Source: a bacterium
GTDB taxonomy: Bacteria > Zhuqueibacterota > Zhuqueibacteria > Oceanimicrobiales > Oceanimicrobiaceae
NCBI GenBank assembly: GCA_046757525.1
Contig: JBHHYI010000244.1
Coordinates: 1-6,047 of the forward strand
Length of the DNA: 6,047 bases
Direction: 5' to 3'
Shown here one piece after another: positions 1-3,000 of the stretch; the stretch's first letter is position 1, and every line of letters starts with the position of its first letter. Position numbers: made by a program.

Positions 1-3000
1 CTAATTCTTTCAGACAATGCAAGGAAAAAAGAGAGAGCTATTGGCGACGAGGTCGCTCAAGAACCTGAAAACCCTGCTGGAAAAGACCGTGCCCAAATTC
101 AATCACCAGGGGCGTTTCCTTGCGACGCTTTCTTCTGGTTATTGTGGAGTGTGGACCCGGATGGGAAAACAGCAAGCGTTCGTAAGAGCTCTCACAGTCC
201 GGTGCAATCGGATTGCTTTAAATATCGGAAACGCTCCAGCAATCGTGACGATTGCGTTACGTTCAACAGAGCGTTTCGCAAAAGCTTGCACAATCCCACA
301 ACCGGATTGCTTTAAATGGCAGAAACGCCTAAGGCGGTTCTGTCATGCAGGGGGCATCTTGTTGCTGGTCAGCACTGTGCAGCCCGCCAACAAGATTCCT
401 CCTGAATGACAACCGGAGGCTGTGAAAAAGGACTGTAACAGCCAGGCGTTTCCGGAAAGCCCTGTGCGAGTCATCCCGAGTAGGTCACCGCTGTTCAGGT
501 GACCGTATCGAGGGGTGACGGGCTTCGGTACCTCCCGACCAAAAAGCGGTCGGGCCTACTCAGGACGACTGCCATGGTTGTCTCTGACGACAACCGTCAT
601 TCCTCATCCGGCAGCCGCCGGATGAGGAATCTGGTGACGCAACGCATGCTTTCCTTATTTCAAAATAATAACGAGGTGTCATGAACGTCTGGTGGCCTTA
701 AGTTTTTTTGCAAGGCAACGGCCTGACTCGAAATGACAAGACGGTTGCTGGATTCAAAACACAGTCAGCGACTGTGTTGGATCGGAACTTGCAGGGGGGT
801 TCTTGAAAGCTCCCGACAACCACTGAGGCCTATTTATCTGCAAGTAACCCTGCGCAAACGAGACGTTTGCGTTACAGGGGGGAGTGTCTCCTGGCAGGCA
901 CCCTGTGAGTCCACTGTCGCGTGGTTCCGAGAAAACGGGTCATATCTTAATGAAAATCCTTTTGCGGTACAAGATGGCCATGAGTCCCAACCAGAAGAGG
1001 ATGTTGGCGATCGCAAAGGCAGCGAACCGTTGAGCGGCCCGGCCCAGGATGCGAAGATGCTGCTTGTACCGTAGTACTTGCTCCTACACCGTTTGTAGCT
1101 GTCAAAGCCTCTGGCGCAAGTAGGGAAACATGGCACGAGTTTTGAATAGAAGATAATCTTCAGGGGCGCACCAAAACTAAAAAAATATAGCCCTATGTTG
1201 GGTTTGATCTCATGATAGCCGATCTCAACGCAATGGACCGTTTTCCAATTGCTTATTCATGGGGTTCCAATAATCACCTTGATTTCTTTGGAAATATTTA
1301 CTATATTGAAAAGGTTTGATAAACTTGTTAATGCCCACAGCCGATCAAATACTTACTTGACAAAAAGTTTCTTACTCGATAAAATGAATTCCCTGAAAGA
1401 AGCTATCTTAATAGGAGTAGGTTCTAATTTGAACGTTTTACCCAGGAGGAGAAGACGGCGTTCCAATAATGATAATATAGATCGATACTTCTATCGCGTA
1501 GGCGGACATTTTTGGCAAGCTATGAACCGCGTTTATCGGACCACCGACAAAGCTTCACAGAGGGAGATAAAAAATCAAATTGAACAGGCATGCCCAAAAG
1601 AGCAAAGCAAAATCATAGTTCAAAAACTAACGAAAACTCCAGGAATTTAGAAGCTGCCTCACCCAACTTACCAAAAGAAACAGATACAACCACTGATCAA
1701 CCCTCGGAGGAACAAGGAAGTGCCAGAGTAGTAGCGACAGCGAGTAGTTTCATTGGACCAATCCCACCGCCTGAAGCCTTAGCAGCTTACGATCAAATCC
1801 TACCTGGCTGCGCCGACCGTATTCTAAAAATGGCTGAAAATGAACAAAAGGTTAGTAATGAAGTAGACCTTAAGTTCGCAAAATATGTGGGCCGAGGCCA
1901 GATTTTTGGTTTTATCTTGGGTCTTGTAACCATTGTTGGCGGTATCCTCCTTATTTATGTTGGCAAAGATGTAGGTGGGCTTACTTCCCTCTTGTCAGGG
2001 CTTGGCGCCCTATTCTGGGCATACCTTCACGGCCAGAAAGAGCAGAAGGACAAAGATAAAGAAGAGTAAATGAACCTTGCCTTCCCTGTTAATCCGGTCA
2101 AAAACATCACCGCGAGTGTGCTCCCGCAATAACATAGAGCAGAGTTTAGATCTTAATGAAAATCCTCTTGTGGTACAAAATGGCCATGAGTCCCAACCAG
2201 AAGAGGATGTTGGCGATCGCAAAGGCCAGCGAACCGTTGAGCGGCCCGGCCCAGGATGCGAAGATGTTCTGGTAGAGCCAGCTCTTCAAGGCAACGGTCC
2301 CACCATTTGCTGCGTGCACTTTAATGAGAATGGTGAGTCGAGCTTCCAGGCCGGAGAGCACAAAAACGGCGATGGAGTTCATGCCGTAGACGATGGCAGG
2401 GTAGGCCCACCTCTTGATGCCTTGCACTTCGATGAGCCAGTAACAAACCCCAAGGAATTGTAGCGCCGCCCCCGAGGTAAACAGGACGTACGAACTGGTC
2501 CACAGGTTCTTGTTGATTGGAAACCAATTGTGCCAGACTAAACCCGCCAGGATGGCTGCCCACCCGGAGACAAACATCCAGCCCGCAATTTCCCTTTTCT
2601 CCTTTCCGGAGCGGATCCAGTAGCCCACTAAAACGCCCGAAAGCGTGGAAGCGACTGCTGGCAGCGTGCTCAACAAGCCTTCGGGATCCCAGGTTTCCTT
2701 CCACATGTGACCATGCAGCAGATGGTTGTCAACATAGGCCGCTAAGTTTCCAGTTACACTCAAGTCGCCTGCACCGTGACCCGGCACCGGAATGAGCTTC
2801 ATAAGGCCCCAATAAAACAGCAACAAGCCGGCCGTTACCCACGCCAGGCCTTTGGCGTTGGTATTGAGCGTGAGGATGGAAGCGAATAAGTAGACGACCG
2901 CAATGCGTTGCAAAACGCCGGGAATGCGGATCGTGGCAAAATGGTAATGTGGGAAGCCGTTGAGGAAGAGACCCAACCCGAACAAGATGCAGGTTCTCTT

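Follow-up and report, generated by a model that had tools for sequence, protein, structure and literature searches.

The repeat array at positions 183-630 of the window (the whole 6,047-nt stretch analysed, on contig JBHHYI010000244.1) is composed of eight hairpin modules that recur throughout the genome, and we interpret it, with a probability of roughly 70%, as a BIME-like accumulation of mutually unrelated REP-type hairpins, every one of which belongs to some class of small-nuclease cassette. The links between repeats and enzymes are positional: what we observe are repeats that lie between genes, form inverted doublets and, in some genomes, stand on both sides of an enzyme gene. REP/BIME repeats with partner nucleases are already known as a general kind; new here are the three-class mosaic and a probable Balneolaceae host for the Rfam family whalefall-1 (RF01762).

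Positions 170-640 of the window are covered by up to ~140 blastn HSPs per position from the rest of the genome, and their predicted fold has a z score of -10.8 against 100 shuffles. The modules are listed in Table 1; their profiles were built anew for this analysis, and their names do not correspond one-to-one to those of the first-pass annotation, which ended the array at 642, short of the remnant at 700-750. In the fold, the end of C2 pairs with the A/C1 junction and encloses C1. Module C3 pairs two CGTC-class units as an inverted dimer, with an inner hairpin in each half. The first-pass annotation had taken this array as the type array of a mosaic that includes whalefall-1, but an Rfam scan with E values up to 10 finds no whalefall-1 match in the window, so that the array itself lacks module W. 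A mir-196 match on C1 (40 bits, cut-off 55.4) was rejected as a generic hairpin match, and the ORFs across the array (17-409 and 1-315) look spurious, the one that was scanned having no Pfam match.

Table 1. Repeat modules and remnants in the window
Feature	Positions	Strand	Description
Module A	183..230	+	nhmmer 49.9 bits; 95 copies after overlap removal; stem related to module B
Module B	239..277	+	50.4 bits; 154 copies; REP-like hairpin with GTAA/GTAG tag on minus strand
Module A, second copy, more decayed	280..323	+	33.6 bits; direct repeat D10 with first copy
Module C1	341..411	+	TGTC-tagged long hairpin, CGTC/Ssn-related class; 35-nt arms, 80% complementary; 73 copies
Module C2	415..466	+	constant partner of C1; 60 copies, 57 immediately 3' of C1
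Module C3	466..570	+	105.6 bits; 157 copies, commonest module
Module G	570..596	+	small linker hairpin; 11 copies
Module D	595..630	.	CGTC-class palindrome with perfect 14-bp stem; inverted repeat I19; 38 copies
D/M-class short remnant	700..750	.	~12 blastn HSPs; longest HSPs reach 746
Solo partial module B	851..875	+	26.8 bits; direct repeat D16
Module M start (CGTC class); contig breaks there	6008..6047	+	31.4 bits

Genome-wide, the module profiles identify 1027 non-overlapping matches in 461 arrays spanning 72.8 kb. Of the module bases, 95.5% lie outside any ORF of at least 150 aa, and a shuffled genome yields 0 matches, which bears out the earlier description of a dispersed hairpin-repeat mosaic in intergenic DNA. 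As in REPs, BIMEs and REPINs, these are short, multi-copy, extragenic palindromes in dimers and clusters. Because 199 of the 461 arrays lie within 300 bp of a contig end, the arrays account for much of the fragmentation of the assembly. Certain neighbours recur (C1-C2 57 times, A-C1 54, W-X 54 and B-W 49), and 95 of the 129 arrays with at least three modules combine two or three enzyme classes. An element of ~165 bp with near-identical copies, also reported earlier, is present in 18 copies. The 44 inter-array gaps of 200-1900 bp hold ordinary genes or none, apart from two DUF559 loci. The DDE transposases of the genome (three PF01609 matches, two of them IS1634) were rejected as partners, having no module within 1.5 kb, and no partner gene was found for modules A, C2, G and T.

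Modules C1, C3, D, K and M are hairpins with a CGTC or TGTC tag, and their relatives are found on the flanks of genes for single-domain GIY-YIG proteins of ~95-100 aa. Of 21 small GIY-YIG genes, 13 have a CGTC-type motif on each side vs 3 of 400 controls, as counted with a detector written after the flanks had been inspected. C1 flanks such genes at loci L119 and L130, D/M matches flank them at L110 and L126, and a C3 half-unit brackets a 102-aa GIY-YIG gene (genome G014, locus L325). A GIY-YIG gene adjoins C3 at only 1 of 27 C3 loci, and in viral contigs, where the C3 pattern occurs in 96 stretches, none of the 80 examined has a nuclease gene within 300 bp. In the genome under study, a protein query for a small GIY-YIG (ssn) gene returned 0 matches and PF01541 was found only in a 631-aa, UvrC-sized frame; loss of the gene from this metagenome-assembled genome (MAG) is possible. 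For the GTAG-type modules, a RAYT gene of the genome itself (NF047646, 108 bits, cut-off 80) is bracketed by J-H-type repeats, and the J-H-I block is an inverted dimer of that repeat. The module B pattern occurs 90 times in this genome, and in other members of the phylum B adjoins Y1 (RAYT-like) genes at L428 (83.8 bits, above the cut-off of 80), L431 and L439 (73 bits, with B on both sides); N flanks RAYT-like genes at L188 and L463. Overall, a Y1 gene is present at 3 of 27 B loci, 19 further Y1 loci from genomes that carry B, or from related ones, all lack B, and viral contigs show the B pattern in 5 cases with a gene beside none. The combination of a GTAG-type tag with a flanking RAYT was not seen for W, C1, C3 or D. 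The earlier view of the repeats as having no transposase tied to them is thus contradicted by the bracketed RAYT and, elsewhere, by relatives of W, C1, C3, D, K, M, B and N that flank DUF559, GIY-YIG or RAYT-like genes.

Whalefall-1 was listed by Weinberg et al. 2010 (PMC2864571) as a noncoding RNA found only in whale-fall sequences. The genome under study has 31 RF01762 matches, only two of which exceed the 37-bit gathering cut-off (C154:10015 at 41.2 bits and C157:139 at 37.1 bits, the two loci also named earlier), the remainder scoring 25-36.9 bits. Module W has two hairpins plus a purine tail, as does whalefall-1, and by sequence is a distant, diverged homologue of it. Matches occur in 30 of 151 genomes of the phylum Zhuqueibacterota, as previously counted, 5 of them above the cut-off, and in 9 of the 17 other genomes of the family. 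Their reported absence from 14 control genomes holds under stricter filters (0/14), while a single-genome search gives one match below the cut-off. We agree that whalefall-1 is very likely a unit of a dispersed REP/BIME-like DNA repeat and not a single-copy sRNA gene: 12 of the 16 Rfam seeds form six divergent inverted pairs, 33-57 nt apart; whalefall-type copies lie in inverted pairs in 52/54, 28/33 and 16/19 cases; and of 25 genomes compared at the orthologous iscA-DUF2480 gap, 2 have a whalefall doublet there, many have other repeats, and 4 have a gap of 7-13 nt. In the genome under study, W and a second variant, W2 (inside module X), form a convergent doublet.

The whale-fall seeds had been attributed to the family of this genome (KSB1), and the scores point instead to Balneolaceae (Balneolota), whose genomes match RF01762 at 70-77 bits vs 41 bits here and 47 bits in the best relative. 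Balneolaceae exceed the cut-off in 21 of 101 genomes (best 76.7 bits), supply 18 of 20 loci of a pattern search (GTDB plus Rhodohalobacter) and can carry many copies (60, 20, 34, 8 and 12 matches in five genomes; best 75.7 bits). A near-exact seed pair sits there and not in the lineage under study: locus L220, from the family of genome G153, is identical to seed wf2_Contig5173 at 55 of 56 bases and to its divergent partner at 52 of 56, with a spacing of 49 vs 50 nt. On this resemblance, Balneolaceae are very likely the host of the wf2 seeds. A literature search for Balneola with whale falls found no relevant paper.

Whalefall-type copies bracket genes for DUF559 (PF04480; PDB 3hrl), which is placed in the Vsr group of PD-(D/E)XK nucleases (PMC3424549), at L063, L067 and L072 in Balneolaceae, at L086 and L041 in the family under study, and in a metagenomic cassette (L222) where W scores 71.6 bits on each side and has 93-96% identity with the copies in our genome, with W2 beside it. 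The proteins are single-domain and 126-130 aa long, and that of L086 matches 3hrl with E 5.7e-18. BoxC-like stems adjoin 24 of 43 and 51 of 70 DUF559 genes vs 2 of 400 and 1 of 400 control ORFs, this detector too having been written after inspection of the flanks; W itself is present at only 1 of the 70 metagenome DUF559 loci. By inspection, the whalefall-1 motif is the E. coli BoxC with an extra hairpin, and DUF559 in the genome under study is bracketed by the simple BoxC form (BX1 and BX2), with the double-hairpin form at other DUF559 genes. No W-flanked DUF559 gene was found in the assembly. Short genes flanked by repeats are easily lost from a MAG, and the shortest contig here is 1515 bp. 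The idea that W-flanked DUF559 proteins form one clade was rejected (3 changes forced). From this gene context, DUF559 probably acts on W, a link between whalefall-1/BoxC and DUF559 that was not found in a literature search.

We suggest the following route to the array. CGTC units (C1, C3, D, K and M) would belong with GIY-YIG (Ssn-type) nucleases, GTAG/TIR-type units (B, N and J-H-I) with RAYT HUH transposases, and the double-hairpin, BoxC-type W with the Vsr-like DUF559. Each nuclease would recognise its own hairpin in single-stranded DNA and nick it, and repair or recombination would then seed copies that lack the gene; where its doublets are directly repeated, a cassette could also collapse to a solo doublet. 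Tolerant intergenic gaps would gather several repeat classes, and recombination among copies would spread and reshuffle multi-module blocks (A-C1-C2-C3, B-W-X and J-H-I), any RNA role being incidental read-through. Spread by nicking and repair has, in our estimate, about an even chance of being correct. We propose more tentatively, at somewhat below even odds, that DUF559 is a third REP-associated enzyme class, after RAYT and Ssn, recognising and spreading BoxC/whalefall-1 hairpin-purine motifs, and that in this genome repeats of all three classes have fused into ordered arrays propagating as higher-order units, each class inserting at or recombining with the hairpins of the others.

The first-pass annotation had instead proposed one mobile mosaic element, native to the KSB1 family, source of the whale-fall sequences and spread with no linked transposase. 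The module order fixed across 300-600 bp in many arrays and the RF01762 matches of up to 47 bits in the family are in keeping with such an element, but we consider it very improbable, given the almost exact Balneolaceae match to the seeds and the existence of partner genes. Moreover, the long mosaic was found in this genome only: in the 20 other family genomes compared with the 473-bp array, the match never exceeds ~80 bp. Nor is a single mobile element supported: flanking direct repeats are at chance level in 94 arrays, giving no target duplications, long arrays are only 77-90% identical to one another, and modules are mostly unlinked: variants of neighbouring modules show no linkage for A-C1, C2-C3, B-W and B-C3, borderline values for C1-C2 (p 0.054) and H-I (p 0.051), and linkage only for W-X (rho 0.26, p 0.005, one of seven tests). 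In target duplication and in the likeness of its copies, the whole array does not fit a MITE, which has fixed ends, target duplication and near-identical copies. Joints in Logan contigs were rejected as empty alleles, other copies accounting for them.

That W is a multiplied functional structured RNA (an sRNA, a terminator or an mRNA-stability hairpin), with the nuclease genes as bystanders in repeat-rich gaps, seems decidedly unlikely to us. Covariation led Weinberg et al. to score the motif as 'certainly RNA' (PMC2864571), stems are kept with some compensatory changes, and 93 of the 116 arrays that have an ORF on each side are located between genes running in the same direction, with which they are probably co-transcribed. 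Yet the modules have no strand bias in tandem gaps and no orientation preference relative to transcription (W 5:10, C3 16:18, B 17:17), repeat types turn over in the iscA-DUF2480 gap, and repeat class tracks enzyme class, BoxC-like stems occurring at 0 of 21 GIY-YIG and 0 of 29 Y1 loci. Mismatches in W stems comprise 21 G-T vs 33 A-C; those in B, N and C3 favour G-T over A-C, as an RNA role would likewise give, so that across modules the test is mixed in direction and not decisive. An orientation bias of the first module after stop codons (A and B) was set aside as array geometry. Unlikely, too, is that the repeats serve as recognition marks for a system kept by the host, such as Ssn-like restriction of incoming single-stranded DNA or recombination control, and are multiplied by gene conversion and not by their nucleases. 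SsnA cuts NTS-bearing single-stranded DNA and lowers Neisseria transformation (PMC11893778), DUF559 cassettes are often near restriction-modification genes (L041, L222 and contig C331 of our genome), and module variants are shuffled between arrays. Against this, the genome richest in the repeats has, as assembled, neither a matching DUF559 gene nor a matching GIY-YIG gene, and the cassettes are patchy and cross phyla, like selfish units (L041 and Balneolaceae DUF559 proteins are 53-55% identical).

For Rfam, the whalefall-1 entry would be corrected twice, as a dispersed repeat and not a lone sRNA, and as having Balneolaceae as its probable host. The cassettes also offer a candidate enzyme-substrate pair for two orphans, BoxC-type repeats and DUF559, which has a solved structure; if DUF559 does cut its own flanking hairpins, it would join Ssn as another family of small nucleases with specificity for a sequence or a structure.

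Compared with RF01762, W shares two adjacent hairpins, the short linker between them and a purine-rich tail, matching model positions 1-56, and differs in its length (61 nt), its longer second stem and its scores of 25-41 bits; unlike the published motif, it is a multi-copy inverted doublet whose kind flanks DUF559 genes. W and the seeds share with BoxC (PIT, TM_ECO) a pyrimidine arm, short loop, purine arm and second purine tract, as well as an intergenic place, no strand bias and often tandem inverted copies, and they have a hairpin of 20-30 nt where BoxC has a 3-nt linker before the tail. TM_ECO is described as an intrastrand triplex repeat by Holder et al. 2015 (PMC4666352), in whose account of it no link to mobile elements is found, whereas here simple and double-hairpin forms bracket DUF559 genes. 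Likewise, where the description of DUF559 in PMC3424549 gives no substrate, the gene context here suggests hairpin repeats as a putative one. Ssn nuclease genes are flanked by NTS/SRM repeats (Chenal et al. 2025, PMC11893778), and with these and the CGTC-tagged REPs of Di Nocera et al. 2013 (PMC3733652) modules C1, C3, D, K and M compare as tagged hairpins with relatives beside single-domain GIY-YIG genes; the units in our genome differ in being longer and nested and in their fusion with other classes, and their likeness to the Ssn system, whose gene was not found in this assembly, is one of sequence and gene position. With GTAG REPs, BIMEs, REPINs and RAYT/TIRYT systems (PMC3733652; NF047646), module B shares its GTAA/GTAG tag and, elsewhere, its RAYT-like neighbours. 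As with those repeats, clusters and dimers occupy the intergenic gaps of the genome. BIMEs are composed of linkers and a single REP system, whereas the arrays described here join units of three enzyme classes in a fixed order.

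The hairpin repeats at the start of the window belong to a mosaic that fills the DNA between genes throughout the assembly under study (G000; 5.09 Mb in 438 contigs), as the first-pass annotation had proposed. Up to ~140 blastn HSPs from other contigs cover window positions 170-640, and this stretch folds much more stably than its shuffles (z -10.8). Eighteen modules were set by coordinates, and the profiles then built retrieve 1027 non-overlapping matches in 461 arrays, amounting to 72.8 kb or 1.4% of the assembly, and 0 matches in a shuffled genome. By a crude gene call (ORFs of at least 150 aa, covering 81% of the genome), 95.5% of module bases fall outside such ORFs, and a contig end is at most 300 bp away for 199 of the arrays. 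The window stretch is also present in Logan contigs from a pair of hydrothermal-vent DNA runs belonging to the same study (one run may be the source), and these contigs accumulate over the modules, which shows that the repeats extend beyond a single assembly.

Modules and other features of the window
Feature	Position in window	Basis or content
Module order A-B-A-C1-C2-C3-G-D	183-630	profile search
Solo B	851	profile search
Direct repeat, first copy	944-1059	
DUF2335 gene	1590-2069	
nagX-like acyltransferase gene	2146-3258, minus strand	
Direct repeat, second copy	2150-2266	
832-aa secreted Amidase_3 protein	3429-5927	carboxypeptidase-regulatory, two Big_5 and C-terminal FlgD-Ig/T9SS-like sorting domains
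M	contig end	profile search

The direct repeat (116-117 bp, copies 96.6% identical) is a duplication of the nagX-like gene's 3' end, and its copies enclose a 1.1-kb AT-richer islet containing the DUF2335 gene; the arrangement looks like an integration scar restoring the gene end.

Most arrays with at least three modules (95/129) mix the repeat classes distinguished here, namely CGTC/Ssn, GTAG/TIR and BoxC/whalefall types, with 56 combining two and 39 all three, in fixed blocks. Two further proposals, that the mosaic is native to the family of G000 and that the array is one mobile element, are not supported. In 20 other genomes of the family, the 473-bp array is matched over at most ~80 bp in 12 and not at all in 8; counts of a C3 pattern are 129 in G000 vs. 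0-2 per genome in the same 20, and those of a B pattern 90 vs. 0-22, so the mosaic is particular to G000 among the genomes compared, while its parts are widespread. No target duplications were found around arrays, long arrays are 77-90% identical to one another, and module variants are reshuffled, so the array does not look like a single MITE. Outside the mosaic, an element of ~165 bp with terminal inverted repeats (contig C11:20707-20870 and 17 other places; 18 copies at least 96% identical) is the strongest candidate for a MITE with recent activity.

The available text of Weinberg et al. 2010 (PMC2864571) presents whalefall-1 as a noncoding RNA restricted to whale fall. Searching with RF01762 gives no whalefall-1 match in the window and 31 places in G000, every one module W and two over the cut-off of 37 bits; W is present in 73 arrays, in three of them as the sole module. 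In the seed alignment from the supplement of Weinberg et al., 12/16 seeds form six inverted pairs, divergent and made up of two variants, 33-57 nt apart on the same contig, and in three Balneolaceae chromosomes inverted pairs hold 52/54, 28/33, and 16/19 of the copies of at least 36 bits, mostly convergent, with ~30 nt between copies. The gap between an iscA-like and a DUF2480 gene, adjacent in 25/30 fetched loci, holds a whalefall doublet in two of the 25, only 7-13 nt in four, CGTC-type hairpins in six or seven (by eye), and further repeats in others; in Balneolaceae (L189-L218) this gap is a hotspot, with several unrelated repeat classes across genomes. No module has an orientation with transcription in the tandem gaps of G000, and W stems contain 21 G-T vs. 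33 A-C pairs. With its inverted pairs and its turnover at an orthologous gap, whalefall-1 behaves as a dispersed repeat, in agreement with the first-pass annotation.

That annotation had also named the family of G000 as host of the whale-fall sequences, and here the evidence points to Balneolaceae. A degenerate pattern fitted to both type I seeds and W retrieved 20 loci from GTDB genomes, G000 records excluded: 18 named Balneolaceae/Balneola, one from Rhodohalobacter (same family), and one from KSB1, the phylum of G000. Five such genomes contain 60, 20, 34, 8, and 12 RF01762 matches, the best scoring 74-76 bits in four, and 21/101 sampled Balneolaceae genomes exceed the cut-off (best 76.7) vs. 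5/151 from the window's phylum (best 47.1). Locus L220 (genome G239, family of the Balneolaceae genome G153) has 1 mismatch in 56 positions to seed wf2_Contig5173/1823-1878; the divergent partners of locus and seed differ at 4/56, with a gap of 49 nt vs. 50 (all by eye). In L026, which is named Balneolaceae, this divergent pair recurs at 73.8 and 68.4 bits. Thus, the genome behind the 15 seeds from whale-fall metagenome wf2 is most likely one of the Balneolaceae; wf1 contributes a single seed, which represents another variant.

The earlier view that no transposase is tied to the repeats gives way to small genes flanked by them. Every one of the four DUF559 genes in G000 adjoins simple BoxC-like repeats. 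A BoxC-like stem lies within 300 bp in 24/43 DUF559 loci (17/20 of one set, 25/30 of a second, and L014, after removal of fragments, tandem duplicates, and a single long frame) vs. 2/400 random G000 ORFs, and in 51/70 metagenome loci (78 minus 8 near-duplicates) vs. 1/400 controls, contrasts that are somewhat overstated because the detector was written after the flanks were seen. Whalefall-type copies bracket DUF559 in genomes G151, G153, G154, G107 (L086), and G050 (L041), and score on one side in G152. The closest case is L222, a Type III restriction-modification locus with doublet-DUF559-doublet between its genes: the W on either side reaches 71.6 bits, shows 93-96% identity to copies in G000, and forms a pair with another variant, one matching the second half of module X; W-X in G000 is thereby a gene-less doublet, which fits the only linkage found between neighboring modules. 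Since the doublets are direct repeats around DUF559 in L041, G151, G153, and L222, a deletion joining the two would produce a lone divergent doublet, arranged as in the seeds. In G151-G153 and G000, however, most of the dispersed pairs are convergent, so this route would not account for every copy.

W-flanked DUF559 proteins occupy three places of the tree, and the L041 protein shares 53-55% identity with those of Balneolaceae, suggestive of exchange between phyla. The L086 protein matches PDB 3hrl, and the accessible part of PMC3424549 places DUF559 in the Vsr group of PD-(D/E)XK nucleases. DUF559 cassettes also lie inside or beside restriction-modification loci (L222, L041, G000 C331, and C26:13869). 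At L036:2029-3024 (G153), a whalefall-flanked DUF559 cassette adjoins a CGTC-flanked GIY-YIG cassette, possibly a first step towards mixed arrays.

The one GIY-YIG domain in G000 sits in a 631-aa frame. Among 21 small GIY-YIG loci (30 minus 9 that were long frames, fragments, or unrelated matches), CGTC-type motifs lie on either side of 13 vs. 3/400 controls, again somewhat overstated by a detector written after the flanks were seen; these loci give profile matches of K, C1, D, and M, and 0/21 have a BoxC-like stem beside the gene. A C3 half-unit lies on both sides of a 102-aa GIY-YIG gene in G014 (1/27 C3 loci). As for RAYTs, G000 has three Y1_Tnp matches; the RAYT at C19:227-763 passes NF047646 and both its flanks align with J-H (H and I have 28-29 copies each, J has 17). 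Module N lies beside the RAYT-like loci L188 and L463, and B is present on either side of L439 and on one side of L428 and L431 (3/27 B loci); no partner gene has been found so far for A, C2, G, and T. L016 (G000 C26:34612-34956), an IS200-like Y1 gene (NF033573) that follows an extended series of hairpin repeats of its own, both direct and inverted, is a further REPtron-like cassette. GxxExxY (PDDEXK_3) genes with their own short AT/purine-rich repeats (G000 C131:1784-2137, C73:3878-4231, C51, C93; L146) are possibly a fourth small-nuclease/repeat pairing.

A mechanism can be proposed that takes as established the repeat nature, the doublets, the gene context, and the turnover at an orthologous site. 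By analogy with RAYTs and with SsnA, for which the available text of PMC11893778 describes hairpin-specific cutting of ssDNA, each small nuclease would recognize its own hairpin; nicking and repair would seed gene-less copies, and recombination among copies may build up blocks and spread them. W-matched DUF559 and CGTC-matched GIY-YIG genes are absent from G000 as assembled, and either its arrays are orphaned or the MAG has lost short genes flanked by repeats.

In literature searches, with subscription journals largely outside their scope, we found no link of DUF559 to BoxC or whalefall-1, including in work on GIY-YIG with REP/RAYT or Vsr. CGTC motifs bracketing small GIY-YIG genes are the Ssn arrangement published in PMC11893778, in the part available, which answers the 2013 statement, in the accessible text of PMC3733652, that CGTC repeats are without a dedicated enzyme. 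As far as the available text of PMC4666352 describes the Escherichia coli BoxC/TM_ECO repeats, whalefall-1 shares their layout, with a hairpin where BoxC/TM_ECO has a 3-nt linker.
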